DNA of 64,000 nt from a virus (taxonomy: Duplodnaviria > Caudoviricetes). Below the pieces are notes generated by a model that did not search any database, was not told the origin of the DNA, and worked only from the letters and a program-made list of their open reading frames with translations. Positions within the stretch are counted from its first letter, which is position 1, and every line of letters starts with the position of its first letter. The translations under genes were made by a program, and so were the position numbers. Of the stretch, positions 30,404-46,610 are shown one piece after another. Location: the IMG/VR virus record IMGVR_UViG_2934156241_000001, positions 1 to 64,000 of that record. One strand, 5' to 3'.

Positions 30404-30469
30404 GCCGCCAGTGTGCCATATCAGGTTGCAACGTCATAGCGCTTCGAGGTGTCTGTCACCTCTTACGCG

Positions 30470-30505
30470 TTGCAACTTGACATTGCAATGCGAAGTTGCA
30501 ACGCT
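30470..30505 (+). promoter_or_regulatory. TTGCAA-box promoter 1
   Basis: TTGCAA-cTTGACa-TTGCAA-7bp-TTGCAACGCT. Confidence 0.85.
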
Positions 30506-30556
30506 GTGCGTATTGGGAACGGCACGCAGCCGGACCCGCCACCACCGGAGGCACCC

Positions 30557-32980
30557 ATGCCCGAGATCACCGCCCAGACGCAGGCAGCCGTCAACGTCGC
30601 CCCCGCCCGCTGCGGGAAGGGCAAGGCCATCCACTACGCGACCGTCGGCCGCCACGAGGTGGCCCTCCTGTGCGGATACCGGAGCTTCGGAGACGCCCGG
30701 CTCCTCACCGATGCCGACCTGCCGAAGATGGGCGACGAGTGCACCCGCTGCGTCAAGGGGGTCCAGCGGATGCTGGAGCGGGTAACCCCCACCGAGGCGC
30801 CGGCCCCCGCCGCCCCGGCCGTCCACCGCTTCGAGGACACCCGGCAGGCCTACGACGCCTCCCAGGGCGACGGAATGCGCGACGGGGACGTCCTGGTCAT
30901 CGAGTCGGAGGGGGTCGTCGGATTCCTCACCGGAGCCTGGCCCGTCGCGATCACCGCCGAACACGGCGAGCTGCACGCCCTGACCATCTCCGCCCGCGAG
31001 GTCGAGGACGGCCGCTACGCCACCAGCACCACCACCGCCGAGCGCATCGCCCGCGAAATCGGCGCCGCCCTGCCCGCCACCGCCCCGGCCCCCCTGGACG
31101 AGGCACTGGCCCCGGCCGCCCCGGCTGGGGTCAAGTCACTGGACCAGGACGTGACGACCCCGGCAACGATGTTCGACCCGGAACTGACCTACTACGCCGA
31201 CGGAACCCCGGTCGTCATGCGCTGGGAGGGCGGCGAGGAGACCGGCGCCACCGTCGGTATGACCACGTACCGGAACCCGTACGCGTACCAGGCCGTCCAG
31301 TTCGAGGACGGCACCATCAAGAAGGTGGCCCCCCACGTCCTCCATCGCGTCGAGCAAGCCCCGGCCGAGGCGCAGCCCGTACGCCACCTCGCGGACTACG
31401 ACCTCGCCCGCACCGACGACGGGGTCACCGTCCACCGCATCACCGTCACCCACGACGGCGACACCGTGTTCACCACGGACCTGCCCTACACCGAGGCGCG
31501 CAACGCGGCCCGCACCCTGGAGGGCCTGGGCTGGGCGATCACCGGCATGGAGACCTATGGCGGACCCCACCTGTTCCGGGCCTGGGTCGAGCCCACCGCC
31601 ATCACGGAGGACCCGCCCGCCCTCCCGTTCCACGGCCCCGACAACTGGGTCGGCCTGCACGCCCTGTGCGGCTACGACAACCACACCGCCCCCCTGGACT
31701 CCCCGGGCCTGGCCGCCGTCCATGAGCGTCGTCGTGGGGTGATGGGCAGCTGCCCCGGCAGCCTGCGCCCGGTCCGCACCACCAGGGACCAGCTGACCAG
31801 CCGGCACACCGCCGCCCTGTCCTACACCGGCCCCAAGCCCTCCGCCCTGGCCTACTGGTCGAAGCCCGGCGACGTCCTCCACGTGGACGGCCAGGACCTC
31901 ACCGTCAAGGACTGCCACCCCGACGAGCGCCACCCCTCCCGCGTGCGTGTCCTCGTGACCGGAGGCACCGACCCGCTGACCTACACCGTCGAGGACACCG
32001 CCACGTTCCGGCGCCGCGTCCGCCGCCACAACGTGGAGTGCCAGGCGTGCGGGGTGTACGCACCCGTGGAGACCGACGAGGCAGTCGACGGCACCCCCAC
32101 CGTGCGCCTGTGCGGCATGTGCGACCGCGAAGTCCTCGAGGCGCCGCCCGCCCCGATGCTGATGCCCGACCAGGCCCGGGGCATCGCCACCCGGTCCCAC
32201 CCCGGCGCCCACGACTTCCGCCACAGCCACGACGCCGCCCTCCGGTTCCTCGGCTACACCTTCCAGATCAGCGAAGACGCCCCGGCCCGCTACGGATGGA
32301 TCACCCCCGCCGGTACGTGCTCCAGGGTCGGCGAGACCGCCCGGTCCAGCGCGCACCAGCTCCTGCCCGTCATGGTGCTGGAGGACCAGCGGGCAGCCAC
32401 CCGCGCCGCCGCCCGCGCAGAGCGGCCCGCCCCCTACGTCGCCGGAGACCGCATCGTGTGCGCCGACGGGGTCACCCGCACCTTCCAGGCCATGGCCCCC
32501 CGGTTCGGCGGCGAACCGGCCCGTGTGATCGTGGAGGGCGGCGCGCAGTGGCTCGCCACCGAGTGCCGTCCGGCCACCCCGGACGAGGAGCAGCAGCCGA
32601 CCCGCCGCGTCGTGGAGGGCGTGGTCGTCCAGCCCGCCACGGCGGGCAGTGCACCGAAGCACGTCGACCACCCGGACATCACCGCCGCCCGCGCCGCGCT
32701 GCGCACCCTCCTGGCAGCCCGGCTCGGCGAGCGCACCGAGCTGGACGGCTCCGACCCGGACGTGCGCGGGTACGTGATCGAGCCGCGCGGCCAGGGTCGG
32801 GTGGCCGTGTACTGGGCCGAGGCCGGGCGCCTCGTGCGCCACGACGACGCCGAGTTCGGGGTGTCCCTGGACTGCTTGGAGTGGACGCTCCAGCGGGCCG
32901 GGTGGGAGACGGAGCGCATGACCCGCAGCGGCCTGTGCCTGTTCGCACACAACCCGGCCGCCCGCCCGACCGGCAACTGA
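30557..32980 (+). CDS. Large multidomain (polyvalent-type) protein
   Basis: GGAGG RBS; small domains joined by Pro/Ala linkers; shares domains with the next two genes. Confidence 0.85.
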   Translation: MPEITAQTQAAVNVAPARCGKGKAIHYATVGRHEVALLCGYRSFGDARLLTDADLPKMGDECTRCVKGVQRMLERVTPTEAPAPAAPAVHRFEDTRQAYDASQGDGMRDGDVLVIESEGVVGFLTGAWPVAITAEHGELHALTISAREVEDGRYATSTTTAERIAREIGAALPATAPAPLDEALAPAAPAGVKSLDQDVTTPATMFDPELTYYADGTPVVMRWEGGEETGATVGMTTYRNPYAYQAVQFEDGTIKKVAPHVLHRVEQAPAEAQPVRHLADYDLARTDDGVTVHRITVTHDGDTVFTTDLPYTEARNAARTLEGLGWAITGMETYGGPHLFRAWVEPTAITEDPPALPFHGPDNWVGLHALCGYDNHTAPLDSPGLAAVHERRRGVMGSCPGSLRPVRTTRDQLTSRHTAALSYTGPKPSALAYWSKPGDVLHVDGQDLTVKDCHPDERHPSRVRVLVTGGTDPLTYTVEDTATFRRRVRRHNVECQACGVYAPVETDEAVDGTPTVRLCGMCDREVLEAPPAPMLMPDQARGIATRSHPGAHDFRHSHDAALRFLGYTFQISEDAPARYGWITPAGTCSRVGETARSSAHQLLPVMVLEDQRAATRAAARAERPAPYVAGDRIVCADGVTRTFQAMAPRFGGEPARVIVEGGAQWLATECRPATPDEEQQPTRRVVEGVVVQPATAGSAPKHVDHPDITAARAALRTLLAARLGERTELDGSDPDVRGYVIEPRGQGRVAVYWAEAGRLVRHDDAEFGVSLDCLEWTLQRAGWETERMTRSGLCLFAHNPAARPTGN

Positions 32981-33045
32981 TCCCGGCCCACCTGGTCGCC
33001 CCGCGCCTCACGGTGAGGGCGGGGCGGCCGCGGACATCATGCCGC

Positions 33046-33074
33046 TTGACATTGCAACGTGATGTTGCAACACT
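33046..33074 (+). promoter_or_regulatory. TTGCAA-box promoter 2
   Basis: TTGACA-TTGCAA-7bp-TTGCAACACT. Confidence 0.85.
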
Positions 33075-33125
33075 ATGCGTATTGGGACGGACGCACCGAC
33101 CGCCCCCGAACCGCTGGAGGACACC

Positions 33126-34220
33126 ATGGAGATCGCCACCGAGGCGCTGGCCATCACCACCCTGGTAGCCGGTGAGATGACCGCCCAGCAGGCCCGAGCC
33201 GCCGTCGCCGGTATGTACCCCCAGGCCTGCGCCTTCGACGCACAGCACGCACAGGACGGCACCGGCACCCTCCTGGGGTACACCTTCCAGGAGCGCCCCC
33301 ACCCCACGGCCCGCGCCGGTTGGATCACCGCAGCCGGCACCGTGTCCAAGGGCCTGGAGGCCTACCACTCGGACGCCCGCGTGATCCTGTGCCTGGCCTT
33401 CGAAGAGGACCGCGCCACCACCCCGGCCCCGGCCGTCGAGGCCCTGGCCACGCCCGCCGACGTCACCCGCACCGACGACGTGAAGATCCGCCCGGACGGG
33501 CGCGGCAAGTGGAGCGTCGAGCGCGGCACGGACACCCTGGGGGTCATCTGGGACGAAGGCGCGATGGCCCGGGGCCGCTTCGCGACCTGGTCCCCCTTTG
33601 CTCAGACCCCCGGCAGCCTCGCCGGATTCTTCGACGACCCGGCCACGGCTGTCGACGCGATCGTGGACATGTGGCCCACCAGCCCGGAGGACATCGCCCG
33701 GGAGACCGGCGCCGACCTGGCCGAGGTCATCGAGCACGCGGACGCCCTGGTCGAGGAGTGGGTGGCCGAGGGGCGCCGCGTCTACCGTACGGCCGTCCGG
33801 GGCGCAGCGGCCAAGCTCACCAGCGAGGCGGCGGCGACCGTGCGAGTGCACATGGGCCTCCCGTCCGCCCGGTATGCCGTGCCCATCGGCGCCGACGAGC
33901 GGACATGGCCCCGGTTCCACCGCCACGACGCCGCCCTCCGGCACGCGGCCAGCTACGGCCTGACCGCCGGCGCCGTCCTGGACACAGCCCCGCAGTGGCG
34001 CACGCTCCAGGGGGTGGCCGCCCCGTTTCAGCTCTGGGGGCACGAGGACGCCAATGGAAAGTTCCACCCGTCCGACGACCTGACGGCGTGCGCCGGCCGA
34101 CCGGTGGCTATCACCCTCACCTGGAACGGCAGCCGCTGGGGCCAGGACAGTGCCGGCCGGGAGATCCACCTCGGAGGCCCGGCCGTGAAGTACTGGGTCG
34201 CCCCCGGCCCGGTCGCCTGA
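33126..34220 (+). CDS. Multidomain protein
   Basis: GGAGG RBS; LLGYTF..GWIT domain; C-terminal WRTL.GV.APF domain. Confidence 0.85.
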   Translation: MEIATEALAITTLVAGEMTAQQARAAVAGMYPQACAFDAQHAQDGTGTLLGYTFQERPHPTARAGWITAAGTVSKGLEAYHSDARVILCLAFEEDRATTPAPAVEALATPADVTRTDDVKIRPDGRGKWSVERGTDTLGVIWDEGAMARGRFATWSPFAQTPGSLAGFFDDPATAVDAIVDMWPTSPEDIARETGADLAEVIEHADALVEEWVAEGRRVYRTAVRGAAAKLTSEAAATVRVHMGLPSARYAVPIGADERTWPRFHRHDAALRHAASYGLTAGAVLDTAPQWRTLQGVAAPFQLWGHEDANGKFHPSDDLTACAGRPVAITLTWNGSRWGQDSAGREIHLGGPAVKYWVAPGPVA

Positions 34221-34327
34221 CCTGCCCGCCCCAGACGCCCCGGCCCTCACGGGAGGCCCGGGGCGTCCCGCTGTCGCCGCGCGGTCCCCGGATGACCCGA
34301 CCGGGTGAAGGTGGACCGCACCCCTCA

Positions 34328-34363
34328 TTGCAACTTGACATTGCAAACTCATGTTGCAACTAT
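34328..34363 (+). promoter_or_regulatory. TTGCAA-box promoter 3
   Basis: Three boxes; TTGACA-17bp-AACTAT. Confidence 0.85.
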
Positions 34364-34412
34364 GGAGACATCAAGAGGGGCACGGAGCCCCCTGGACCGC
34401 ACGGAGGAAGCC

Positions 34413-35801
34413 ATGAACAACACCACCGCCCAGACCGCCACCGTCGCCCTGGCCCAGGTCGGCGCCGGCCGCACCGTCCACTTCACCACCGACGCCACCG
34501 CCACCCTGTGCGAGCGCCCCGTGAGCCGCGTACTGGACGAGGACCAGGCCGCGAAGAAGAACAAGCCGTGCAAGCAGTGCGCCGTCGCCCTGGAGGCCGC
34601 CGCCACCGAGGAGACGCCGGCCGTCGAGGTCGAGGAGGACCAGGCCGAGAAGGAGGCGCGGCGCACAGTATCCGGGACGTACCTCCACGCCCAGGACTTC
34701 GAGCCGCAGCGCGACGAGGAAGGGCAGCTCCTCGGATACACGTTCGCCGTCCACTCCTCCACCTCGACCAACTACGGATGGGTGACCACCGCCGGCCACT
34801 TCGGTCAGGTACTGGAGCCCTACCGGTCCACCGTCGAGGAATTCCTGCCCGTCGTCGCCTGGCAGGACGAGCAGGTGGCACGCCGCGCCCCGAAGCTGGC
34901 GGAGGCCGCCATCGAGGAGGCGCCGGCCGTCGAGGTCGAGGAAGCCGCGGCCGCCGAAGAGGCCCCGGTCGAGGAGGCACCGACCGGCGCTGCAGAGGCC
35001 CCGGTCGCCGGACGGGTCGAGGTGACCGCGTACACCGCCGCCGTCGATCAGCTCTACCTCAACGGCCGGGACAACGAGGACCGCGCCCTGTACGTGGACG
35101 GCACCGACGTCCTGGAGACCCTCCCGACCCTGCGCCGGATGCCCCGCTGGAACGCGGCCGAGGAGCGGTTCACCGTCAATAAGGTGGCCCTGATCCTCGT
35201 CCGGGACGCCCAGGGTGACCGCGTGTGGGTGCGCGGTGAGGCCGACCCGATCCGCGTGGACGCCGCAGGTGCGCAGGTGGACGTGGACGCCCCCGCCGAG
35301 CCCGGACCGGTGGACATGACCGCCGTCCTGGCCGCGACCAAGCAGCTCCGCCGCCGCCGCGAGGTCCAGCGGGTCATCGACAACCGCGAGGCCGCCCGCG
35401 CCGCGAGTACCCCGACCCCGGTTGTCGAGGAGGCCCCGACCCCGGTGGTCGAGGAGGCCCCGACCCCGGTGGTCGAGGAGGCCCCGACCCCGGTGGTCGA
35501 GGAAGCCCCGGCCCCCGTGGTCGAGGAAGCCCCGGCCCCGGTGGTCGAGGCCCCCGAAGCCCCGGCCGCTGGTCCGGAGTGGCGCACGCTCAAGGGTGTG
35601 GAGGCGCCGTTCCTCCTGTACGGCGAGGACGCCGGAGATGCCTTTCACCCCGCCAACGACCGCAAGCGCTGCACCGGGGAGCCTCTGACGATCACCCGCG
35701 TATGGATGAGCGCCGGCACCCGGTACGCGCAGGACGCGACCGGCCGGAAGACCCACCTGTGGGGAGCCGCTACCCGCTACTGGGTGAGCCCCGCAGCCTG
35801 A
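34413..35801 (+). CDS. Multidomain protein with PVVEEAPT repeats
   Basis: GGAGG RBS; shares three domains with neighbouring genes. Confidence 0.85.
   Translation: MNNTTAQTATVALAQVGAGRTVHFTTDATATLCERPVSRVLDEDQAAKKNKPCKQCAVALEAAATEETPAVEVEEDQAEKEARRTVSGTYLHAQDFEPQRDEEGQLLGYTFAVHSSTSTNYGWVTTAGHFGQVLEPYRSTVEEFLPVVAWQDEQVARRAPKLAEAAIEEAPAVEVEEAAAAEEAPVEEAPTGAAEAPVAGRVEVTAYTAAVDQLYLNGRDNEDRALYVDGTDVLETLPTLRRMPRWNAAEERFTVNKVALILVRDAQGDRVWVRGEADPIRVDAAGAQVDVDAPAEPGPVDMTAVLAATKQLRRRREVQRVIDNREAARAASTPTPVVEEAPTPVVEEAPTPVVEEAPTPVVEEAPAPVVEEAPAPVVEAPEAPAAGPEWRTLKGVEAPFLLYGEDAGDAFHPANDRKRCTGEPLTITRVWMSAGTRYAQDATGRKTHLWGAATRYWVSPAA
35410..35552 (+). repeat. 24-bp coding tandem repeat, about 6 copies
   Basis: CCCGACCCCGGTGGTCGAGGAGGC-like units encoding PTPVVEEA. 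Confidence 0.9.
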
Positions 35802-35927
35802 CCGAAGCAGCCGCAGCGGCCCCGACCGCGAGCGATGCGCCGACCCGCACGGGCCGGCGCATCGCTGCGTTCCGGGGCCCTCGTCCGCTGCATGACCCGC
35901 CCGGGTGAAGATTCCCCCGCCCTCGCA

Positions 35928-35963
35928 TTGCAACTAGACAATGCAATGCGATGTTGCAACACT
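35928..35963 (+). promoter_or_regulatory. TTGCAA-box promoter 4
   Basis: Three boxes; TAGACA-17bp-AACACT. Confidence 0.8.
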
Positions 35964-36012
35964 ATGCATATCGGGAAGGGCGAGGGGCCTGGACCAGACG
36001 GAGGGACACACC

Positions 36013-36756
36013 ATGGACGCCACCACCAAGACCGCGCAGCTGATGGCCCGCCTCGTCGAGGCCGAGACCACCCTCCGGAACACCCGACGCGAGGAGGCCC
36101 GCACCGAGCGCGCCGCCACCCGCGCCACCGCCCGCCTCCTGACCGCCCGCACCGACCTGGCCGCCGCCCGCCGGAACCTGCGCACCGCCGAGCGCACCGG
36201 CAAGAGCCTGGCCGTGGCAACCCGCCGCCTGGCCACCCGCACCGCCCGCGTCGAGAACCTGACCACCGCCGCCCGCGAGGCCAAGGCCACCGCGACCGCC
36301 GCGCGCCGCGCCGCCCGCGCCGCCGCCCGCCGACTGGACACCCTCGGCCGCCGCGCCGCCCAGGCAGCCACCCGCACCGTCGCCACCATCGCCCACCGCC
36401 TCGGGGAGACCAGCCTCACCCCGGCCCCCGCCGCCGACCGCACCCTGGACGCCACCGAGCTCCCGGCCGTCGAGGAGATCGAAGCCCACGCCGAGCGCTT
36501 CACCGACCTGGACGCCGAGGCCAAGACCCTGGCCAAGTCGGCCGACGCCGAGAAGAAGTGGCTGCGAACCCTGCCCGTGGGGATCTACGGACGGGTCGTC
36601 ATCACCCGCACCCCCGGCGGCAGCGTCCTGGACAGCGACCAGGTCGCCCTGGACTACGCCGCCATGGGTGGCCTGGTGCCCCCGCGCAAGGCCCGCCGCG
36701 ACACCTTCAAGGTCGCCCTCCAGCCCGAGCTGGCCGCCCTCCCCGCCGCTGCCTGA
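36013..36756 (+). CDS. Basic coiled-coil protein
   Basis: GGAGG RBS; Ala/Arg/Thr-rich helix followed by a globular C-terminus. Confidence 0.8.
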   Translation: MDATTKTAQLMARLVEAETTLRNTRREEARTERAATRATARLLTARTDLAAARRNLRTAERTGKSLAVATRRLATRTARVENLTTAAREAKATATAARRAARAAARRLDTLGRRAAQAATRTVATIAHRLGETSLTPAPAADRTLDATELPAVEEIEAHAERFTDLDAEAKTLAKSADAEKKWLRTLPVGIYGRVVITRTPGGSVLDSDQVALDYAAMGGLVPPRKARRDTFKVALQPELAALPAAA

Positions 36757-36824
36757 CCCACACCCGCCCGGCCGGGCAGCGGCGTACGCTGCCCGGCCCC
36801 TCGCCCCCGAAACGGACGCACGCC

Positions 36825-37375
36825 ATGTCGCTCCTTCCCCGCAGCATCCCGGTACCGGCCGCCGAGCAGATGGCCGCCACCCTCGCCGCCGTCGGCACCA
36901 TGCTTGGCCCCTTCAAGGGGAGCAGCAGCATTACCCGCACCGTCGCCCACCAGGGAGCCGACTGGGAGCTGACCTACCTCGGCCCCATCGGGTGGCGCCT
37001 GACCGGCCCAGGCGTGGAGCACGGCATCGGTGTGGACGCCGAGGAGGCCGCCGCGCACATCACCACCCCGCCCGCCGGCCCGGCGCCCGCTCGCCGCGTC
37101 CACGTGCGCATCGGCACCCACCGCCGGGCCTACCACCCGGACAGCGCCTGCCCCGCACTCAACGGCAAGCCGGAGACGTACCGGGGCCAGGAGGTCATGG
37201 ACGAGAGCGAAGCCCTGGAATGCGGGCTCGCCCTGTGTGCCCAGTGCGACGCCGCCCTGACCGCCGCCCCCAGCGGTACGCGGGGGCGCCCGTACCGGCG
37301 CTCGTGCGCGCCGCCTGGACGACGCCCCTCGCGGACGGGTGGCGCCTGGGCGTACGCAGCGCCCTCGCCCTCTGA
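36825..37375 (+). CDS. Hypothetical Zn-binding protein, probable frameshift near 37270
   Basis: YH..S.CP.L...LCAQC; plausible tail RYAGAPVPALV...WRLGVRSAL lies in another frame after a C run. Confidence 0.55.
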
Positions 37376-37430
37376 CCCACCATCCACGGCCGGCGCACCC
37401 GCGACCGGCCGGACCCGAAAGGACACCCCC

Positions 37431-37604
37431 ATGGTTCCCGCCCTGTACGGCATCGTCGCCCGCCACGTCGCCACCGGTGAGCTGCTGCGCTGCGCCTCCG
37501 TGTTCGACCTTGAGGACCTGCCGGTGCTGTTGGAGGAGTTCGCCGACGCGTACCGCGACAGCCCGGACGTGCTGATCGACCTGGACACCACCCCCACCTC
37601 CTGA
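37431..37604 (+). CDS. Small acidic protein
   Basis: AAAGGA RBS + ATG. Confidence 0.65.
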   Translation: MVPALYGIVARHVATGELLRCASVFDLEDLPVLLEEFADAYRDSPDVLIDLDTTPTS

Positions 37605-37649
37605 CTGCTGCCCGACCGGGTCGCCCCCCACCCAATCCGACGCACCACA

Positions 37650-37685
37650 TTGCAACTTGACATTGCAATGTGACGTTGTAGCTAT
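37650..37685 (+). promoter_or_regulatory. TTGCAA-box promoter 5
   Basis: TTGCAA-cTTGACa-TTGCAA-7bp-TTGTAGCTAT. Confidence 0.8.
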
Positions 37686-37740
37686 GGGGGTGTCGGTGAA
37701 GCACTGAAACCCCGCCTGACCAGCACCGAAGGAGCCCAAC

Positions 37741-39987
37741 GTGGCAACCGTCGAACCGCCTCGGACCCCCGCCGTCGCCATCGCCCGCGAGCTGCGCAGC
37801 CTCGGCCTTGGCCAGGGCGCCGGGAAGGACTTCCGGATCGAGGGCCACTACGTCAACGGCGAGCGCCGCTACACCCACGCGCTGCTGCTCAGCCGCCGCG
37901 CCCACGAGGTCATCGCCGCGAACGCCGACCTGATCGAGCAGCGCACCGAAGCAGGCCCGTTCCCCTTCCTCGTATCGCTCCGCGACCTCGACGGCCGCAT
38001 GGTTGCCTCAGTCGCCAACGGTGGCCCCCGCTACCGCGATGCCCTGCCCGCCCCCGCCGCCGAAGAGGCCGCACCGATCGAGCCCCCCGCCGAGGAGGCC
38101 GAGCTGTGGGACGGAGTGGAGGGCATCGTCGCCGGCCCCGGCATCGTCCGCCCCGGCGTGCACGTCGAGTGCCTGCCCCAGCACCGGCCCGGCCCGCGCA
38201 CCCGCTACGCCCACGGCGGCGTGATCCAGTCGGTCGGCCCGGTCAACGTCCGGTGGCGCCCGTACGGATACGACCGGGACATCTCCACCCCGCTGGAGCA
38301 CATGCGCGTGGACGCCTGCGCACACCTCAACATGCGAAAAGACGTGAACCGGGCAGTCGTCGCCCTGAACGCGGGGCGACTGCCCAGGGACCCCGAGTGG
38401 GTCTACTGGAACCTCGCCCAGCACATCACCCATGCCGCGGCCCCGGCCGTCGAGGAGGCCGAGGAGGCCCCGGTCACGGCGCAGGCCCCGGCGCCCGCCG
38501 GCCCCGTGGTCGTCATCCCCTGCGGCGCGGCCAAGCTGCCCCACAACGCCCCCGCCCGCGAGCTCTACACCGGCAGCTATCACCGGGCCTGCGCCCGCGC
38601 CGCTGCCACCCTCGCCGGAGGCAGCGGGACGGTCCTGATCCTGTCCGCGCTGTACGGACTCACCCCTCTGGACCGGGTGATCGCCCCGTACGACCTCCGG
38701 ATGGGACAGGCCGGGAGCGTCACCGGCGACCAGCTCCGCGACCAGGCCCGCGCCCTCGGCGTGGACCGGGCCGAGGACGTCGTCATCCTGGCCGGTGCCA
38801 CCTACACCGCCGCCGCCCGCGAGGTCTGGCCGGAGGCATCCACCCCGCTGGCCGGGCTGGGAGGCATGGGCTACCAGCTCCAGTGGCTGGCCACCCTCGC
38901 CGCCGGCGAAACCGCCACGCTCCCGCCTGCCGCCCCCGAGGGGACTGGAGGGACTGATGACTCCCACGACAGGGGCCCTGTCCGGCAGGTCCCCGCCGAG
39001 CCGGTCGAGGACCACCGCGAGACCTACCGGCAGGAGCGGCAGGCCAGCGCGCTGCACTGGTCCACCCGCCACGCGGACGTCGTCACCCGGGCCGCAGCCG
39101 GACAGCTCGTCCGCGACGAGGACGGCACCGCCCGCCTCACCGGCGCCCACGGACGTCCCGGCCGCCGAGTCGCCGCCGCACTCCTGCCCCCGCTGGAGGA
39201 CGCCGGGTTCCTCGCTGCAGTCCCGGCAGGGGACGGCACCGCCCGGATCGAGCTGACCGGCGACGGCCGCCGCGCCCTCCTCGTGTGGCAGCGCCACCAG
39301 CCGGAGCCCGTCGAGCGCCCGCGCAAGAGGGAGGGCCTGCCCCTGTCCCCGCTGCTCGGCGGGGATGAGGCCCGCCGCCGCGCTGAGGCATTCCACGCCG
39401 CCGAGCGGCAGCGCCGCGCCGACTGGCAGCTCTGGTACGCGGAGTTCGAGGAGCGCCGCGCGGACGAGGAGTGGCGGGACCGTCTGTGGGCCGCGTACGC
39501 CAGGGTCCGGGACATCCGTTACCGGCTCGGCCGCAAGGTGCCCGCCGGGTGGGCGCCGACCGACGAGGAGGTATCCCGCCACCGGCTGGACCCGGAGGTC
39601 GTGGCAGCGCTGCGCGCCCAGCAGGGCCCGGCCGATGAGGGGTCGCCGGCTGTTGAGCCGCACCCCGCCGACGCTGACCGCCCCCACTCTCATCCTGACA
39701 CCACATATTGCAACTTGACATTGCAATATGGCGATGCAAGTATCGAGGTGTCAGGAAGGGCGACCGGCCCGACCAGGAAGGGGTTTGACCATGAGCCGCA
39801 CCATCCGCATTCGCAACACCGAGGACGCCGTGGTGGAGATCGCCGCCATGACGACGCGCGTCATCGCGGAGGCCGGGCACAAGGGTCACGACCTGGAGAC
39901 GGTCGGCCGGATCATCACCTCGGACACCGTCCTGGACACCATCCGCACCGCATACAACCGGCGCACCGCCGAGGGGGCCACCCCTAA
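37741..39987 (+). CDS. Multidomain protein with DUF6884-like domain; true 3' end probably near 39700
   Basis: VIPCGAAK...APARELYTGSY...ILSALYGL...IAPYDLRM; ORF as read runs through the next promoter and gene. Confidence 0.75.
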   Translation: MATVEPPRTPAVAIARELRSLGLGQGAGKDFRIEGHYVNGERRYTHALLLSRRAHEVIAANADLIEQRTEAGPFPFLVSLRDLDGRMVASVANGGPRYRDALPAPAAEEAAPIEPPAEEAELWDGVEGIVAGPGIVRPGVHVECLPQHRPGPRTRYAHGGVIQSVGPVNVRWRPYGYDRDISTPLEHMRVDACAHLNMRKDVNRAVVALNAGRLPRDPEWVYWNLAQHITHAAAPAVEEAEEAPVTAQAPAPAGPVVVIPCGAAKLPHNAPARELYTGSYHRACARAAATLAGGSGTVLILSALYGLTPLDRVIAPYDLRMGQAGSVTGDQLRDQARALGVDRAEDVVILAGATYTAAAREVWPEASTPLAGLGGMGYQLQWLATLAAGETATLPPAAPEGTGGTDDSHDRGPVRQVPAEPVEDHRETYRQERQASALHWSTRHADVVTRAAAGQLVRDEDGTARLTGAHGRPGRRVAAALLPPLEDAGFLAAVPAGDGTARIELTGDGRRALLVWQRHQPEPVERPRKREGLPLSPLLGGDEARRRAEAFHAAERQRRADWQLWYAEFEERRADEEWRDRLWAAYARVRDIRYRLGRKVPAGWAPTDEEVSRHRLDPEVVAALRAQQGPADEGSPAVEPHPADADRPHSHPDTTYCNLTLQYGDASIEVSGRATGPTRKGFDHEPHHPHSQHRGRRGGDRRHDDARHRGGRAQGSRPGDGRPDHHLGHRPGHHPHRIQPAHRRGGHP
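39708..39743 (+). promoter_or_regulatory. TTGCAA-box promoter 6
   Basis: Three boxes; TTGACA-17bp-AAGTAT. Confidence 0.85.
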
Positions 39988-40309
39988 GGACGCCGTGATC
40001 GCCGTCGGCACCCAGCTCATCGCCCACTACTGCAACTCCGCCGGCATCGAGCCCGCCGCCGAGGCCGAGCCCGCCGCCCCGGAGACGACCACCGCCGACC
40101 CGGCAGGCGTCCCGCACCGCACGCACGGCACGTGCGGCGCCACCTGGAAGCGGGTGCCCGTGAACCGCAACCGCCCGGACCTCGGCGACACCACCGAGTA
40201 CGGCCACCCGAAGTGCGGCCAGCCCGCCACGGTGGACCGCTTTGTCAAGGCGGCCCAGGCCGACTACTTCCGCCCCGTCTACGCCTGCCCGGCCCACACC
40301 CGCAACTGA
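39791..40309 (+). CDS. Hypothetical protein with C-terminal Zn finger
   Basis: RBS; CGA...KCGQPA...YACPAH. Confidence 0.75.
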   Translation: MSRTIRIRNTEDAVVEIAAMTTRVIAEAGHKGHDLETVGRIITSDTVLDTIRTAYNRRTAEGATPKDAVIAVGTQLIAHYCNSAGIEPAAEAEPAAPETTTADPAGVPHRTHGTCGATWKRVPVNRNRPDLGDTTEYGHPKCGQPATVDRFVKAAQADYFRPVYACPAHTRN

Positions 40310-40382: not shown

Positions 40383-40793
40383 ATGCCGAGCAAGCCGAAG
40401 ATGGACCACACCGAGCGCGCCGCCCGCGACCTCATCAACCTCAAGGTCCGCGAAGGCATCATCGACCGCCGCAACGGCAACGAGATCATCCGGACCGGCC
40501 TGCCGTTCATCACGGTCATGCTCGCCCGCTGGAGGCGCGAAGGCACCTCCCCCCAGTGGATCACCGAGAAGTTCCAGACCAAGCTCGCGGAGGCCAAGCA
40601 GCAGGCCGCCGACGCCCCCGACAGCGCGTTCGCCCAGCAGCGCGCACGCCTGTCCGTAGTCGCCGCAGAGATGTACCTCGCGGCCTGGGCCGGAATGCAG
40701 GCCGACCTGGGCCAGTACCTCGCCGACCTCAAGACCGCCGACCAGGCCGCGGCAGTGGACGCCGCGCCCCCGGCCATCGAGCCCGCCCCCTGA
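40383..40793 (+). CDS. Hypothetical protein
   Basis: GGAG RBS; codon bias. Confidence 0.75.
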   Translation: MPSKPKMDHTERAARDLINLKVREGIIDRRNGNEIIRTGLPFITVMLARWRREGTSPQWITEKFQTKLAEAKQQAADAPDSAFAQQRARLSVVAAEMYLAAWAGMQADLGQYLADLKTADQAAAVDAAPPAIEPAP

Positions 40794-40825: not shown

Positions 40826-41518
40826 GTGTTCCGCGAGACGATTACCCACGCCGGAGGCACCACCGAAGGCACCGCCAGTGAAACCCACGCCGTGACGCTC
40901 CTCGTCCGCGCCGCCCGCCGGCAGTACGCCATGGAGGCCACCCCCGCCGGAGGTGCGCTCATCACCTGGACCCGCCACGTCTTCGGCCCCGGCGGAAACA
41001 GCCTCGTGCTCGTCGACCGCTCCATCCGGCTCGACCCCATGACGCCGGTCGGCAACCTCACCGACACCGTGCGGGAAGACCTGTCCCTGGTCGACGGCGA
41101 CCCGCGCGCCCGGTATGACCTCGTCAAGGGGCGCCGCGTCATCACCGGCACCCTGTGGCAGGTCCCGCCGTTCCCCACGGCAGGCCTCCGCGCCCGGCGC
41201 CTGGTGGTCGAGGACCGGGGACGAGTCCGCCTCACGCTGACGGCCCGCCTGGGGCTCCTGGCCCACGCGCACCGCACGACCACCACGGCGCCCCGGGGCT
41301 GGTACCACCCCTCCGCGTACGAGAGCGCCGGACTCAACCGCCCCGGCCGCCGGGCCGGACTCCTGCGCGACAGCACGAGCGCTGCCGTGTGCAGCTGCCT
41401 GGAGCTGTCCGCCGTGGGAGGCGACCGCGAGCACGCCCGGCGCCTGGCTCTGGATCACCGGCGTGCGGTGACCGCCGAGTTCGTCGCCGACCGGCTCGCC
41501 GTGCCGGTGAACGCCTGA
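40826..41518 (+). CDS. Hypothetical protein
   Basis: AGGAGG RBS + GTG; C-terminal CSC...H. Confidence 0.75.
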   Translation: MFRETITHAGGTTEGTASETHAVTLLVRAARRQYAMEATPAGGALITWTRHVFGPGGNSLVLVDRSIRLDPMTPVGNLTDTVREDLSLVDGDPRARYDLVKGRRVITGTLWQVPPFPTAGLRARRLVVEDRGRVRLTLTARLGLLAHAHRTTTTAPRGWYHPSAYESAGLNRPGRRAGLLRDSTSAAVCSCLELSAVGGDREHARRLALDHRRAVTAEFVADRLAVPVNA

Positions 41519-41574: not shown

Positions 41575-41610
41575 TTGCAACTTGACGTTGCAACATGGGA
41601 ATGCAATTAT
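41575..41610 (+). promoter_or_regulatory. TTGCAA-box promoter 7
   Basis: Three boxes; TTGACG-17bp-AATTAT. Confidence 0.85.
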
Positions 41611-41653: not shown

Positions 41654-42154
41654 ATGACGAAGACCGCCGCCCGCGCCGCCGCCGCCCGCACCCGGGACCT
41701 GGCCGACATCATCAGCAGCCGCACCGCACTCCACCCCGCACGGGACGTACGCCTGCGGATGATCGACTACCTGACCGCCGCGGCCGCCGCCTTCGAGGAG
41801 AGCGACGGCGCAGTCACCCCGTTCGGCGCCGCCGCCGCACTCCTCCAGTGCCAGGCGCTCGCCGACAACCACCCGGCCGCCGGGGTCGCGGAAGACGTCT
41901 TCTACTACGTCGCCGCCCCCGTGAGCCGCTGCAACCCCGAGGTGCCCGACCTCGCCCCCGTGAGCTCGGTCCTCGCCGGACAGGAGAGCCGCCTCCGCTC
42001 CCAGATCAGCCTGGCCGCCCACGACCTCGACCGAGAGGGCGACGCCACCAACCGCTACGCAATCCTCGCCACCCTCGCGGACCTTCACTACCGCTTTGAC
42101 CGCCTCGCGGAGACCGTGCAGGCCGACAACCTCCGCCCCACCCCAACCCGCTGA
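41654..42154 (+). CDS. Hypothetical helical protein
   Basis: RBS; codon bias. Confidence 0.75.
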   Translation: MTKTAARAAAARTRDLADIISSRTALHPARDVRLRMIDYLTAAAAAFEESDGAVTPFGAAAALLQCQALADNHPAAGVAEDVFYYVAAPVSRCNPEVPDLAPVSSVLAGQESRLRSQISLAAHDLDREGDATNRYAILATLADLHYRFDRLAETVQADNLRPTPTR

Positions 42155-42223: not shown

Positions 42224-42577
42224 ATGACCGTGGGGCGCGGCTGCTGCAAGCGCGTCACCGGCTGGCCCCTGAGCGCCGCCGAGGCCCGCCGCCTCCTCGA
42301 CCAGGCCCAGCGCGAGGCCCGCGCTCTGGAGGCCTGGGGTGACAGGTGCCGCACGGCCCTGGCCGTGGGTCGGTTCCCCCGCGACCGCGCGCAGACCATC
42401 GGGAGCGCCCTCGTGTCGGACATGCTCGACGGCGCCCCGCAGCACCGCGTCGAGCGACGCGCCGCCGAGCTGCCCGCCCTGGTTGGCGCCCTCGGCTGCG
42501 CCGGTGCCCCACTGGCCGACCTGGTGGCCGTCGGCGAAGTCCACCGGCGCCGCCGCCTCGGCATTCCCTGGGTCTGA
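42224..42577 (+). CDS. Hypothetical protein
   Basis: ORF fills the gap; start uncertain. Confidence 0.4.
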   Translation: MTVGRGCCKRVTGWPLSAAEARRLLDQAQREARALEAWGDRCRTALAVGRFPRDRAQTIGSALVSDMLDGAPQHRVERRAAELPALVGALGCAGAPLADLVAVGEVHRRRRLGIPWV

Positions 42578-42613: not shown

Positions 42614-42662
42614 TTGCAACTCCACATTGCTACTTGACATTGCAATGTCGAGTTGCAACTAT
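42614..42662 (+). promoter_or_regulatory. TTGCAA-box promoter 8 (four boxes)
   Basis: Boxes at 42614, 42627, 42640, 42653; TTGACA-17bp-AACTAT. Confidence 0.85.
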
Positions 42663-42714
42663 GGGTTTCGGGAGGGGGTGCCAAAGCCCCCACCGCACGA
42701 GAACGGAGCAGCCC

Positions 42715-43449
42715 ATGCGCACCCACGCCACCGCCCAGCTCACCGGGGGACGGGACAACCAGTGCGACGCCACCGCCGTCTACACCACCCCCAACGGCAC
42801 CCGCGCATACGTGCTGCTGGACGGAATCGGCGACACCGAGCACGTCCGGGAGTGGACCCGGGCCGCGGCCCGCCGCCTCGCCCGCACCGCCGCCCGCCAC
42901 GGGGACGCGGACAGCGGCCTCCGCGCCGTATACGCCGCCTACCAGGCCGAAGACCTGCGACAGGACGTCTACGCCCGGGACTACGCCCCGATGGCCGCCG
43001 CCGTGGTGGTCGTCACCGCCCCCGGTAAGCCGCTGTCCGTGGCCTGGGCCGGCGACTCCCGCGCGTACCTCCTCGTGGACGCCAAACTCCAGCGCCTCAC
43101 CAACGACCACAACCTCCGCCGCGTCTACCCGCCGTGCGCGACGTACCCGGAAGGCGGCAACCGACACCGCATCACCGCATGCCTCGGGTCCTGGCAGACC
43201 GACGAGGACGCCATGGACTACGCGGGCCACCCCGCGATGGAGTCCACGACCGTCCCGGCCCGGAAGTGCCGGCTGCTGCTCGCCTCCGATGGCGCCTACG
43301 AGCCGATCCAGGACAACGGCGCCGACCTGCGGACCTACCTCCACGGCACCCCGGCCAACGTCGCCCGGGACCTGGTGGAGACCGCCATCGCCTGGGCCGG
43401 GACCCGCCCGGACAACGCCACGGTGCTCATCGCCGACCTGACCGCCTGA
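42715..43449 (+). CDS. PP2C/PPM-family protein phosphatase
   Basis: R..QCD, LLDGIG, AWAGDSRAY, LTNDHN, LLLASDG, DNATV. Confidence 0.9.
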   Translation: MRTHATAQLTGGRDNQCDATAVYTTPNGTRAYVLLDGIGDTEHVREWTRAAARRLARTAARHGDADSGLRAVYAAYQAEDLRQDVYARDYAPMAAAVVVVTAPGKPLSVAWAGDSRAYLLVDAKLQRLTNDHNLRRVYPPCATYPEGGNRHRITACLGSWQTDEDAMDYAGHPAMESTTVPARKCRLLLASDGAYEPIQDNGADLRTYLHGTPANVARDLVETAIAWAGTRPDNATVLIADLTA

Positions 43450-43506: not shown

Positions 43507-44007
43507 ATGACGCACTTCGCCGCCCCCGCCCTGCCCGAAGGCACCGTCCCCGTGGGCGCCCTGGTCACCTACCACGGCAGCTTGGCCGAGCTCCACGGAC
43601 AGCGCTTCAAGGTCATCCCCTGCGGCTGGCACTGCGACCGCGACACCGACGACATGGACGGCGCCTCGGACCCTTGCCGCCTCGACGCCCCGGAGCCCCG
43701 GTTCGGCCTGTACGACCCGACCACGGGCCAGCCCGTCATCGAACACGTCCGCGCCACGAGCATCACCCCGGTGACCACGACGTGGCCCTCCGACGCCGTC
43801 CCGTTCCGCATCGCCTCGTACTGGTACATGGCCAGCCACACCACCCGCGGCGGCAGCAGCCATGCCCGGGTCGTGCACTTCTACCGCGACGGCGACACCC
43901 GGGGCATCCCCAACGCGGAGACCTGGTGCCGCCTGCGCACCGGCCCCGTCAGCGACCTCATCCGCCACCTCGACGGCCAAGCCCGCGACCGCACGCGGAC
44001 GCTCTGA
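43507..44007 (+). CDS. Hypothetical protein
   Basis: AGGAG RBS; VGALVTYHGSL. Confidence 0.75.
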   Translation: MTHFAAPALPEGTVPVGALVTYHGSLAELHGQRFKVIPCGWHCDRDTDDMDGASDPCRLDAPEPRFGLYDPTTGQPVIEHVRATSITPVTTTWPSDAVPFRIASYWYMASHTTRGGSSHARVVHFYRDGDTRGIPNAETWCRLRTGPVSDLIRHLDGQARDRTRTL

Positions 44008-44108
44008 CCCCTTGTCCGGACAGTGTCCGGGCCTGTCCGCCCCTCCTCGACGGACACGCCCGGTCGCCTGCCCAGGCACCACCCACACCACGACGAAAGG
44101 CGCCACCC

Positions 44109-45041
44109 ATGGCACACATCGACATCACCCACTCCGCCCAGGAAGGCACCCTCGCGGACGGCGGCGAGAAGGGCGACGGCACCGGCGGCATCCTGTACGC
44201 CCACGGCTTCCGCTGGTTCCGGTCCCTGCGCCAGTACGGCATCCGTAGCTCCCGAGACCGGGCCCCGCGACTGATCCTCATGCACACCGTCGCCGAGCAG
44301 CTCCGCGCCAACGGGCACACCGCGACCGTCACCGTGGACGGCGAGGTCCGCGACAACGCCACGGTGCGCGCCGACCAGCACGAGCGCCTGGAGGACCGGC
44401 GCACTGCGCTGGAGGCCGAGGGCCAGAAGCTCGCCAAGGAGGCCGAGGTCCTGCGCCGCCGCTCCGACGAGATGGTCGAGCACCTCCCCCTCGGACAGCC
44501 GGTCATGCCCGGCCGACGCGGCCAGTCACACCGCAACCTCCTGAACCGCAGCATCGACACCTCAATCCGCTCGGCCCTCACCGCCCAGGAAGCCGACCGG
44601 ATGCCCGACCGCATCGCAGGGTCCCGGCGGCAGGAGGCCCACCGCGAGCGGCTGGACGTCACCGCGCGCCGAGTCGACCGCCTGAACACTGAGCTGCGTT
44701 CCCTGGACCGCCGCATGGCCCGGCTGTCCCTGTACCCGGAGACCGGCTCAAGCCTCCTGCGCCAGCAGTACGAGGGGGAACGCGCCGTGCTCGTCGAGCG
44801 GATCGCCGGCGACCAGGCAGTCCTGGACCGGGCCGTGGAGGAGGGCCGGTTCGGCCGCTACTCCAAGGGCAACGTCCATAAGGGCGACCTGGTCAAGGTC
44901 CGGGGCCAGTGGCGCACCGTCGCCCGAGCCAACGCCAAGACCGTGTCCGTGACGACCGGCTACTCCTGGACCGACAAATACGGCTGGGAGGAAGTCGCCG
45001 AACTGCGCTGCTCCCACGTCGAGGACGACGACCAGAGCTGA
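44109..45041 (+). CDS. DUF3560-like protein
   Basis: ITHS..EGTL..G..KGDG, GFRW, PLGQP, C-terminal KGDLV..RG.W..V.RAN.KTVSV. Confidence 0.75.
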   Translation: MAHIDITHSAQEGTLADGGEKGDGTGGILYAHGFRWFRSLRQYGIRSSRDRAPRLILMHTVAEQLRANGHTATVTVDGEVRDNATVRADQHERLEDRRTALEAEGQKLAKEAEVLRRRSDEMVEHLPLGQPVMPGRRGQSHRNLLNRSIDTSIRSALTAQEADRMPDRIAGSRRQEAHRERLDVTARRVDRLNTELRSLDRRMARLSLYPETGSSLLRQQYEGERAVLVERIAGDQAVLDRAVEEGRFGRYSKGNVHKGDLVKVRGQWRTVARANAKTVSVTTGYSWTDKYGWEEVAELRCSHVEDDDQS

Positions 45042-45054
45042 CCGTCAGCTCGGG

Positions 45055-45243
45055 ACGGACGGTGTCCGGACACCACGCGGACACTGTCCGCCCCGGTGTC
45101 CGGACTCCCTCTCTCCCGAGCCCGGACCAGCCCGCCCGGACACCCCCTGTCCGGAGAGTGTCCGCCCTGTCCCACCTGCACCGATGCCCACCCCCGGACA
45201 CCCAGGCTCACGCCTGTCCGGACACCCCCGGACACCCTGTCCG
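45055..45243. repeat. Dense intergenic CGGACA/TGTCCG motif cluster
   Basis: More than ten motif copies in both orientations, including TGTCCGGACA palindromes. Confidence 0.8.
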
Positions 45244-45264
45244 CCACACACCGGAAGGCCCCTC

Positions 45265-45960
45265 GTGATCACCACCCTCCTACTCCTCGCCGCCGCGTTC
45301 GCCGTCCACTGGTGGTGGACGAGGAAGCCGAGCACCCGCCACGGTGCCGGCGCCTCGGCCGCCGCCCGAGCCCGCCAACTCCGTACGCCCCTCGTCCGCC
45401 TGGCCACCGCCCTGGGCATCGCCACCGACGCGGAGCGAGAGGCGCACAACTGGGAGATCGGCGCCCGGGGCGAGCGCCGTGCCGCCGCGCGCCTCCAGCC
45501 CCTGACCGATGACGGCTGGTGGATCCGCTACGACCTCGCCCTCCCTCCCGGGGAAGGGTCGGCGAACGTGGACGGCCTGGCCATCAGCCCTGCCGGGCGG
45601 CCGTTCGTCCTCGACCCGAAAGTCATGGACGGCCGCTTCCCCGTCACCGTCCGCGCGGGCCGCGTCCGGCACGGCGACCTGGACGTCACCCGGCGCATCC
45701 GCAGTGCGGGCAAGCAGGCCGCGGCTGTGTCCCGGGCCCTCGGCGTGCCGGTCGTCGCCATCGTCGCCATCGAGGGGGCCCAGCTCCTCGGCCCTCACGG
45801 GCGACCGGCCACCGAACTGGCCCTCGGCTCCATCCGCATCGTGCCGGCGCACCGCCTGCCCACCGTCCTGCGGGCCACCGCGCACATCCCCGGGCAACGC
45901 CGAGCCGCCGCCCTGGTGGCCACCGCAGAGCGGGTCCTGCCCCCGTACCGGGGACGCTGA
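45265..45960 (+). CDS. NERD-domain nuclease with N-terminal TM anchor
   Basis: GARGE....L...GW....DL.LP...ANVD.L.ISP.G...LD.K. Confidence 0.85.
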   Translation: MITTLLLLAAAFAVHWWWTRKPSTRHGAGASAAARARQLRTPLVRLATALGIATDAEREAHNWEIGARGERRAAARLQPLTDDGWWIRYDLALPPGEGSANVDGLAISPAGRPFVLDPKVMDGRFPVTVRAGRVRHGDLDVTRRIRSAGKQAAAVSRALGVPVVAIVAIEGAQLLGPHGRPATELALGSIRIVPAHRLPTVLRATAHIPGQRRAAALVATAERVLPPYRGR

Positions 45961-45971
45961 CACGCCCCATG

Positions 45972-45994
45972 TTGCAACATGAGTATGCAAGTAT
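45972..45994 (+). promoter_or_regulatory. TTGCAA-box promoter 9 (partial)
   Basis: TTGCAA-7bp-ATGCAAGTAT; no canonical -35. Confidence 0.6.
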
Positions 45995-46037
45995 GTGGGT
46001 GTTGGGACAGGGACACCACACCGGCAGGAGCAGCACC

Positions 46038-46610
46038 ATGGCGCACCGCGAGACCACCGTCACCGTGTACGGCACCACCCGCACCATCCGTACCGAGCAG
46101 ACCGGCACCGTGCGCCAGATGGAGACCGCCCACACCAAGGCGGTGAAGGCAGCACTCCAGGAGCTGCACACCACCGGCAAGGACGCCGCGCTGTCCGCCG
46201 CGAAGAAGGCCGCCGCTGCCGCTGACCGCGCCTGCCGCGACCGCCTCACCCCCGCGACCGCAGTCGCCGCCGAGAACGCTCGGAGCCGCATCAAGCGCAT
46301 CAACAAGCGCCAGTGGACCGGCTACTCCTTCCCCAACCTCGACGCCATGCGTCGCCCCCACGCGCCCGTAAAGTTCGACCTGGACCCCGCCGACACCCTC
46401 TTCGCCGACTGCCACGAGTTCATCGACCCCGACGCCCCCACCGAGCAGCCCCCGGTCGTCGAAGAGCCCCGCCCCCTGATGGGCGCGAAGGCGTTCCTGG
46501 ACACTCTCCTGGCCGCCCACCAGCCGCCGGCCCCGACAGGCCAGGAGCCGACCGAGGACACGGACCTGGAGGAGTTCCTGAACGGCTTCTTCGCCCCTGT
46601 CGCCGGCTGA
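46038..46610 (+). CDS. Hypothetical protein
   Basis: AGGAG RBS; codon bias. Confidence 0.75.
   Translation: MAHRETTVTVYGTTRTIRTEQTGTVRQMETAHTKAVKAALQELHTTGKDAALSAAKKAAAAADRACRDRLTPATAVAAENARSRIKRINKRQWTGYSFPNLDAMRRPHAPVKFDLDPADTLFADCHEFIDPDAPTEQPPVVEEPRPLMGAKAFLDTLLAAHQPPAPTGQEPTEDTDLEEFLNGFFAPVAG

Follow-up and report, generated by a model that had tools for sequence, protein, structure and literature searches.

The window analysed here, a stretch of 64,000 nucleotides, is the first 64 kb of the IMG/VR record IMGVR_UViG_2934156241_000001 (95,558 bp, provirus class, estimated complete), which is a temperate prophage related to the Streptomyces phage TurkishDelight. It carries ten copies of a promoter cassette of about 90 bp, each built around TTGCAA boxes, nine of which lie in a gene array within positions 30424–46610, next to a divergently oriented gene for a protein of 163 amino acids (aa) at 29912–30403. 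With a probability that we put at roughly 0.6, the cassettes make up a phage regulon in which the boxes are the operators of the 163-aa protein, a dedicated and autoregulated repressor gating an array of accessory or early genes.

Promoter Cassettes and Their Boxes

The exact hexamer TTGCAA occurs 22 times in the window, 21 times within 30424–46610, against an expectation of 2.02 (standard deviation 1.33, largest value 7), and none of 100 shuffled sequences reached 22. With the first base relaxed ([AT]TGCAA) the count rises to 32, with 25 copies in the same interval. Sixteen adjacent pairs of boxes are spaced by exactly 13 bp and two by 26 bp, whereas 200 first-order Markov simulations gave a mean of 6.1 boxes (maximum 14) and a mean of 0.005 pairs at 13 bp (maximum 1). 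When the AT-rich islands of the 95.5-kb record are listed, exactly 10 of 35 hold at least two boxes, and these are the ten cassettes; the structural and lysis region (46–95 kb) is free of boxes except for four isolated hexamers, and no box is found around the CI-like gene at 2065–2583. The 12-mer TTGACNTTGCAA is present in eight copies in a 10.1-Mb host genome, seven of which cluster within 11.3 kb of the prophage on one strand, which argues that the boxes are not those of a host regulon.

The first-pass annotation of this DNA had described nine elements of one layout with 13-bp-phased boxes, and all nine align without gaps to the pattern wTGCAAC-TTGACA-TTGCAAy-N6-kTGCAAn. It had placed each of them ahead of a ribosome-binding site (RBS) and one to four genes and had called the −10 element at 37650 degenerate; a GGAGG-type RBS with a start codon does follow each element 50–60 nt on, leading into one to four plus-strand genes, and the element at 37650 reads AGCTAT. 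The range of 30424–46610 that it gave for the array holds all nine elements, but the regulon is wider than that, since it also reaches 12155–13917 and includes the box at 30425–30431 in the promoter of the regulator gene, both of which had been missed. The cassette at 12155–12216 precedes a gene (12295–13917) with an N-terminal helix-turn-helix (HTH)/replication-initiator-like match (phrog_1456, phrog_4707), and TurkishDelight likewise has a cassette ahead of gp71, the counterpart of this gene. A role of the 12155 cassette as an iteron or origin was considered and is not favoured, its layout being the same as that of the other promoters.

The anatomy of the cassettes was derived from 63 cassette-like promoters taken from the window, TurkishDelight, one IMG/VR contig and ten Streptomyces genome loci, which were anchored on the −35 hexamer and box 2, so that these twelve positions are fixed by construction. 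At the free positions of the 45 three-box promoters (from the window and eight related prophages) T20 and G21 are conserved at 100%, A24 at 93% and T28 at 100%, which corresponds to the TG of an extended −10 and to the second and sixth positions of a −10 element located 17 bp past the −35. Within box 1 the G and both C positions are each conserved at 100%, and the six bases (N6) separating box 2 from box 3 vary freely. The −35 hexamers of the ten cassettes read TTGACA in six cases and TTGACG, TTGACC and TAGACA in one case each, with none at 45972. The cassettes thus look like extended −10 promoters of the sigma-70/HrdB type, and the earlier view of one coordinated set of housekeeping-sigma promoters is supported. 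As this signature falls on box 3, box 3 is partly promoter. A sigma-54 promoter, whose −12 element TTGCA resembles, was rejected, the GG of the −24 element not being present; actinobacteria, moreover, are not known to have sigma-54.

In the subtype found in TurkishDelight and at the homologue loci L006, L013 and L015, box 2 forms the centre of a 16-bp palindrome, TGACTTTGCAAAGTCA, which overlaps the −35. Its right half lies outside the positions read by sigma factors, as would be expected of a classical operator.

The Divergent Gene and Its Link to the Boxes

The 163-aa protein is a tandem duplication of one module, in which a helix of about 40 residues is followed by an HTH-like HTPYDRNHVGRI segment. 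Its AlphaFold2 model (predicted local distance difference test score, pLDDT, of 90) has two long 40-residue helices, each followed by two short ones. The protein matches phrog_34713, a group of unknown function, and is 49% identical to TurkishDelight gp102, which the depositors annotate as an HTH DNA-binding protein. The gene's own promoter has a leaderless-type layout with a single box, TTGCAAC-N9-CAyAsT-N6/7-ATG, which is kept in the window and at the loci L007–L012, L014 and L016; TurkishDelight, L006 and L013 have TTGCAAA or GTGCAAA at the position of the box.

The comparative evidence tying this protein to the boxes runs in both directions and is strong. Starting from the protein, cassettes recur beside its homologues in 11 related prophages or phages, and 21 of 22 homologue loci have a TTGCAA within 230 bp upstream of the gene. 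Single-repeat homologues of about 90 aa, which occur in unrelated contexts with no array, carry TTGCAA upstream in nine of nine cases, against a background in these nine loci of three sites in 164,673 bp (0.004 per 230 bp). At one of them, in Jiangella (L018, 2620–4729), three TTGCAAC boxes at exact 13-bp spacing precede an operon of the regulator and a TraG/VirD4 gene; at two others (L017 and L020) the single-repeat homologue is directly upstream of a NUDIX gene, and at L022 an FtsK/SpoIIIE gene is nearby. Because of these TraG, NUDIX and FtsK/SpoIIIE-type neighbours, the single-repeat homologues appear to reside in conjugative elements.

Starting from the promoters, a scan of IMG/VR by the promoter pattern alone returned 79 stretches. 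Seventy of them have a GC content of about 0.3–0.5 and one, which is not cassette-like, has 0.59; these 71 lower-GC matches are taken as chance. The remaining eight, at about 70% GC, fall in five contigs, and all five encode a homologue of the 163-aa protein, which in three of the five adjoins the pattern match on the opposite strand. Protein and box also covary by subtype: helices with DRNH-VGR- go with TTGCAAC triple boxes and helices with DRNW-IGE- go with TTGCAAA and the palindrome, the latter pairing holding for the array as well as for the promoter of the regulator itself. The gene at 29912–30403, which had already been named as the regulator candidate, is thereby tied to the boxes from both sides.

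The family has 140 cluster representatives among 1.84 billion proteins. Domain scans of 73 of the 140 found nine, to which P0086 is to be added, in which a single repeat is fused behind an N-terminal nuclease-type domain, GIY-YIG or T5orf172/MUG113 (P0086, P0126, P0159, P0167, P0178, P0185, P0209, P0218, P0238 and P0248). In the distant member P0225 the short helices of the repeat overlap the Pfam models HTH_29, HTH_17 and HTH_23, below their cut-offs. On account of these nuclease fusions and of the sub-cut-off HTH overlap the repeat is taken to be a DNA-binding module, and we infer that the 163-aa family binds DNA. The layout of the nuclease–repeat fusions is like that of a homing endonuclease.

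It has to be considered whether the boxes involve this protein at all. Box 3 itself supplies the extended −10 TG and the first −10 bases, TTGCAA is one transposition away from TTGACA, and no known DNA-binding fold was recovered for the 163-aa protein, all of which would suit a model in which the boxes are intrinsic strength or recognition elements of a phage promoter class, read by the polymerase of the host with or without a further factor, and the 163-aa gene is merely the first member or a neighbour of the array. We consider this model improbable, as it leaves the upstream boxes of the array-less single-repeat homologues (all nine, once with the exact 13-bp spacing) without explanation, together with the extension of the palindrome into spacer positions that sigma factors do not read and the presence of a box in the regulator's promoter where there is no adjacent −35.

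Proposed Mechanism and Its Alternatives

In the proposed model, each cassette would be a near-consensus housekeeping promoter, with TTGACA, a 17-bp spacer and a TG-extended −10; next come a short leader containing a small GC hairpin and then the RBS. The boxes, which in their 13-bp register flank the −35 and overlap the −10, are most likely operators for the 163-aa protein, which would act as a single-chain duplicate, its single-repeat relatives presumably being dimers. Boxes lie to either side of the −35 and over the −10, so that their occupancy would exclude RNA polymerase, with the protein acting cooperatively on two to four boxes. The same bracketing of the −35 and covering of the −10, in promoters that need no activator, is why the protein is read as a repressor, and the single box in its own leaderless-type promoter would lead to negative autoregulation.

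In a lysogen, and without any need for the CI-like repressor, the protein would silence the nine array promoters and the promoter ahead of 12295, the putative replication-initiator-like gene. The host polymerase would start from all ten promoters at the same time in a cell without the protein, be it newly infected or one that has lost the repressor. The circuit would be separate from the CI switch, as had been claimed before, because no box lies near the CI-like gene at 2065–2583, and it would be more than an accessory-gene switch because the 12295 gene is also covered. That the protein represses rather than activates, that lysogens express it and that a burst follows entry into a cell without it are presumed from the layout of the sequence.

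A broader proposal, which we offer at rather less than even odds, is that the 163-aa protein and its relatives of about 90 aa are an undescribed, Pfam-less group of mobile-element regulators, in which an antiparallel coiled coil with two HTH modules, put together from two chains or, in the 163-aa protein, from a single duplicated one, reads 13-bp-phased TTGCAAC boxes and coats the promoter. In the prophages this would provide a second, CI-independent immunity circuit for shuffling entry genes (possibly with anti-defence or takeover functions) and for the initiator-like gene, and in conjugative elements the proteins could have a Kor-like role for transfer genes.

A different model accepts that the 163-aa protein binds the boxes and assigns it to the lytic cycle, as a timing device, either for a Cro- or Arc-like shut-off of immediate-early genes or as an activator or co-factor, with the array in the prophage being otherwise controlled or even expressed. 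The regulator gene has its own box-bearing promoter, a CI-like gene is already present (with TurkishDelight having an annotated repressor/Cro pair), and some array genes resemble functions expressed from prophages, namely NERD and, on 37741–39987, the candidate PDC-M57A match. Such a timing role is nevertheless unlikely in our view: the boxes overlap the flanks of the −35 and the −10, which are not activator positions; promoters with a consensus −35 and a TG-extended −10 should need no activator; and from 24 to 64 kb no gene other than that of the regulator, which is set behind a hairpin, lies on the minus strand, a layout typical of expression independent of the lytic operons.

Several observations weigh against the model of a dedicated repressor. 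On the side of the DNA, box 3 overlies the TG of the extended −10 together with the two leading bases of the −10 hexamer, and its conservation could be explained by promoter function alone. The −10 hexamers fit TATAAT poorly, and since a strict scan for the E. coli consensus calls just one of the nine on the plus strand, at 41582, the strength of the promoters is only inferred. Among the sequencing runs listed for 29500–39400 there is one of DNA, possibly from the source sample, and none of RNA. In a 13-bp register each site would be rotated by about 85 degrees against the next, an uncommon arrangement for proteins that bind cooperatively, and insulating hairpins are found at only four unit boundaries. 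The subtype covariation amounts to a single phylogenetic split, and the TTGCAA core stays constant while the identity of the regulator falls to 39–41%.

On the side of the protein, no HTH fold was recovered for the 163-aa product, whole-model searches with Foldseek and VIA-align giving matches to coiled coils and helical hairpins only. Foldseek against the PDB returned nothing at E ≤ 0.001, and the top hits of the wide VIA-align search (Z up to 8.1, to helical hairpins, among them tubulin cofactor A and ROP variants) are in the noise range for long helices. When the repeat was modelled in isolation (57 aa), pLDDT was 78, the middle helix was lost and the fold search matched nothing. Pfam, NCBIfam, PADLOC and a profile search of PDB sequences assigned no family, the last giving only TNFAIP8-like chance matches (E 0.003–0.05); in Pfam there was no XRE-type HTH and no hit beyond an E-value of 0.33. 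HTH leads do come up in the ESM Atlas, at 0.77–0.81 only, all below 0.85. A search for longer fused homologues of the 163-aa protein found none, which is weak evidence.

It could also be that the chief role of the cassettes is to shuffle accessory genes, as substrates of recombination or as hairpins in DNA or RNA, in the manner of the PeSL elements of T4-type phages, with regulation being secondary. Gene content is indeed mosaic among the relatives. At the locus L011 the units corresponding to 2 and 3 stand in the opposite order, unit 5 (37741–39700) is absent, and a single promoter can be aligned with the window promoter at 37650 and also with that at 39708, a pattern such as would be expected from recombination between cassettes, with two events in one comparison. 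The flanks of boxes 1 and 2 are, besides, more complementary within promoters than between them (2.93 versus 2.25 of 6 positions, with 0 of 2000 partner shuffles reaching the observed value), a test that is weakened because related promoters are not independent. As a main function, shuffling is nonetheless very improbable in our estimation, as it explains the repeats as boundaries and not the −35/−10 register, the box in the regulator's promoter or the boxes of single-repeat homologues; it is compatible with regulation rather than exclusive of it.

Comparison with Known Systems

That the system has no described equivalent, as the first-pass annotation had it, is overstated, as close parallels in function exist in CUP/ArdK (which it had itself named), in PeSL and in the stoperators, those of the Streptomyces R4-type phages among them. 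In the IncN plasmids pKM101 and R46, CUP elements are described upstream of several accessory and establishment genes, and ArdK binds these copies as well as its own promoter (PMC6289460). By functional analogy, the array would share with CUP/ArdK an element-encoded repressor, a repeated upstream promoter element and a regulator whose own promoter is bound. The CUP elements, however, belong to the leading region of Gram-negative conjugative plasmids and not to a prophage, the ArdK site is a single 13-nt consensus instead of phased hexamer boxes, and ArdK is given as without sequence relation to the 163-aa protein, so that the likeness is functional only.

For T4-type phages, PeSL elements are described as strong sigma-70-like early promoters with stem-loops between the non-essential genes of hyperplastic regions, where recombination shuffles modules (PMC2839356). 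The array, for its part, has GC hairpins ahead of three cassettes (2, 3 and 4) and two rearrangements with junctions at promoters. PeSL elements, in contrast, come from lytic phages and lack both operator boxes and a regulator of their own, whereas here there is a protein-linked box array with hairpins at some boundaries only. As regards the stoperators of Cluster A mycobacteriophages and of Streptomyces R4-type phages, one repressor is reported to act at many dispersed prophage sites; these are described as single asymmetric sites at which the main immunity repressor blocks elongation genome-wide (PMC9283540, PMC6550527, PMC10276819). Unlike them, the boxes described here come in phased groups of two to four confined to the ten promoters and that of the regulator, whose product is not the CI-like gene's.

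Other parallels can be named as well. In P22 immI (Mnt/Arc-ant) and with the C1 operators of P1, a repressor beyond the classical CI/Cro pair keeps additional promoters silent in the lysogen; these systems use other folds and involve one promoter (P22) or single 17-bp operators (P1). Omega of pSM19035 and MetJ on its metboxes are small repressors that bind short runs of repeats over promoters, both being ribbon-helix-helix proteins on contiguous 7–8-bp repeats. In pSAM2, korSA, which encodes a GntR protein, precedes the Nudix gene pif, and the position of the L017 and L020 homologues upstream of a NUDIX gene recalls, by analogy, this korSA–pif order. None of omega, MetJ and KorSA is related in sequence to the 163-aa family. 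By analogy, then, the system would function like CUP/ArdK, PeSL and the stoperators and yet belong to none of them, because its protein is unrelated, its sites are phased multi-box arrays inside promoters and its regulator is distinct from the CI-like gene. A description of these cassettes was not found in the literature on TurkishDelight, on Streptomyces phage promoters and repeats and on phiC31, subscription journals being outside the coverage of this search.

The most interesting part of the system is its uncharacterised regulator family. If the repressor model is right, a group of Streptomyces temperate phages would gain a defined operator, a candidate regulator and a regulon of ten promoters, whose predictions can be tested at the bench because TurkishDelight is an isolated phage. 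A protein family free of annotation would join the DNA-binding regulators of actinobacterial mobile elements, and the prophage would be an example of how many strong, independent promoters of host type can be silenced without the CI repressor. The cassettes could serve in Streptomyces engineering as compact, repressible strong promoters, and the genes that they drive would be good candidates for early host-takeover or anti-defence functions.

Array Units, Hairpins, and Genome Context

The coordinates of the cassettes and related features are collected in Table 1; gene calls are those of our own script, which uses the GC content of third codon positions (GC3) and the RBS.

Table 1. Promoter cassettes, regulator gene and hairpins of the window; the −10 hexamers of cassettes 1–9 are those 17 bp past the −35
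Feature	Position	Strand	Boxes	−35	−10	Genes driven or remarks
CI-like gene, HTH_31	2065-2583	−				Pfam scan
Cassette 10	12155-12216	+	12155, 12181, 12194, 12207	TTGACC, 12188-12193	AACATT, 12211-12216	ahead of 12295-13917
GC-rich hairpin	29845-29875	.				between upstream plus-strand genes and 3' end of regulator gene; read from the sequence
Candidate box-binding regulator, 163 aa	29912-30403	−				divergent from array
Regulator's own promoter	30404-30432	−	TTGCAAC, 30425-30431		CACACT, 30410-30415	9 nt between box and −10, 6 nt between −10 and ATG
Cassette 1	30470-30505	+	30470, 30483, 30496	30477-30482	AACGCT, 30500-30505	30557-32980 (807 aa)
Terminator-like GC hairpin after unit 1	32981-33038	+				RNAfold on intergenic stretches
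Cassette 2, without box 1	33046-33074	+	33052, 33065	33046-33051	AACACT	33126-34220
Similar GC hairpin after unit 2	34221-34327					RNAfold
Cassette 3	34328-34363	+	34328, 34341, 34354	34335-34340	AACTAT	34413-35801
Leader hairpin, example	34376-34393
Similar GC hairpin after unit 3	35802-35927					RNAfold
Cassette 4	35928-35963	+	35928, 35941 (ATGCAA), 35954	TAGACA	AACACT	36013-36756, 36753-37604
Cassette 5	37650-37685	+	37650, 37663; third degenerate (TTGTAGC)		AGCTAT, degenerate	37741-39987 (DUF6884)
Cassette 6	39708-39743	+	39708, 39721, 39734	39715-39720	AAGTAT	39791-40309, 40383-40793, 40826-41518
Leader hairpin, example	39757-39772
Cassette 7	41575-41610	+	41575, 41588, 41601	TTGACG	AATTAT	41654-42154, 42230-42577
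Cassette 8, four boxes	42614-42662	+	42614, 42627 (TTGCTA), 42640, 42653	42634-42639	AACTAT	42715-43449 (PP2C), 43552-44007, 44109-45041 (DUF3560), 45265-45960 (NERD)
Leader hairpin, example	42673-42691
Cassette 9, partial	45972-45994	+	45972, 45985	no hexamer	TG + AAGTAT, 45989-45994	46038-46610
Similar GC hairpin after last gene	46611-46819					RNAfold

The recognisable products of the array are DUF6884, a PP2C phosphatase, DUF3560 and NERD proteins, most of the others being unknown; the first three array proteins have domains in common. The DUF6884 gene (37741–39987) matches the PADLOC candidate PDC-M57A and, weakly, DpdC. Its open reading frame (ORF) has no stop before the next promoter; it continues through the cassette at 39708 and enters the following gene, in a different frame, by about 200 nt, with the GC3 signal ending near 39650; either a stop has been lost or the tail genuinely overlaps.

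The hairpin at 29845–29875, after which there is no T-run, probably insulates the array from upstream transcription, judging by its position. RNAfold on the intergenic stretches found no hairpin of the unit-boundary kind ahead of 37650, 39708, 41575, 42614 and 45972, and a terminator scan that requires a T-run finds none of the GC hairpins. The leaders carry a small GC hairpin of their own, GGGC-N5-GCCC, often with an outer GG/CC, about 12–35 nt past the −10. A hand-drawn version with six pairs is 79.7% paired in 51 leaders, as against 31–55% with the partner slid, and has 10 compensatory cells, which is modest support; RNAalifold on the same 51 leaders gave no consensus structure. The leader hairpin could be a 5' stabiliser or a regulatory site.

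The window has a G+C content of 71%. By PHROG and Pfam scans its gene order is the CI-like gene, RecE/RecT/RusA, the 12295–13917 gene, the array and three ParB-like genes, to the right of which come a 7-deazaguanine pathway (DpdA-like, QueD, FolE) and then terminase, portal, capsid, tail and lysis genes. The sole related phage record is that of TurkishDelight (93.6 kb), which encodes a tyrosine integrase together with an annotated immunity repressor and Cro. In a complete Streptomyces chromosome there is a relative whose array start is followed, about 65 kb farther to the right and at the expected end of the prophage, by a tyrosine integrase, and the 29912–30403 gene sits on a 547-kb contig. 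The element is therefore a temperate prophage, in agreement with the first-pass annotation. No integrase was found inside the 95.5-kb record itself; the immunity repressor and Cro of TurkishDelight show no similarity to the window ORFs 2667–3083 and 3118–3432, and a megablast search of the 16.9-kb stretch against phage records gave only a 413-bp phosphatase match, to TurkishDelight.

A direct repeat, CTACGCGCTA, is present twice at 2632–2684, upstream of the CI-like gene; it bears no relation to the TTGCAA boxes and could act as an operator in the CI-type switch. The left end of the record, directly ahead of the CI-like region, holds three tRNA genes (Asn, Asn and Met, 481–953), which may belong to the phage or to the host, in the latter case as markers of the attachment side. 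ARAGORN further reports a tRNA-Arg at 17623–17697 on the minus strand and a doubtful tRNA-Arg at 52420–52504 within the QueD-like ORF.

The three genes with ParB-like nuclease domains start at 47607, 49505 and 50292 and are followed by a DpdA-like transglycosylase (51296–51919), QueD (52335–52760) and GTP cyclohydrolase I (53479–54096); the region 47607–54096 is likely a 7-deazaguanine DNA-modification module. Among the head and tail genes beyond the window, a 2670-aa ORF at 70241–78253 of the record has eight stretches that match phrog_18824, its product being a very large repetitive protein of the virion region. Elsewhere, an RNA ligase-like protein, an RNase E-like PHROG match and a MuF/2'-5' RNA ligase-like fusion of the head region are found at 20050–20640, 54180–54599 and 61307–64000.

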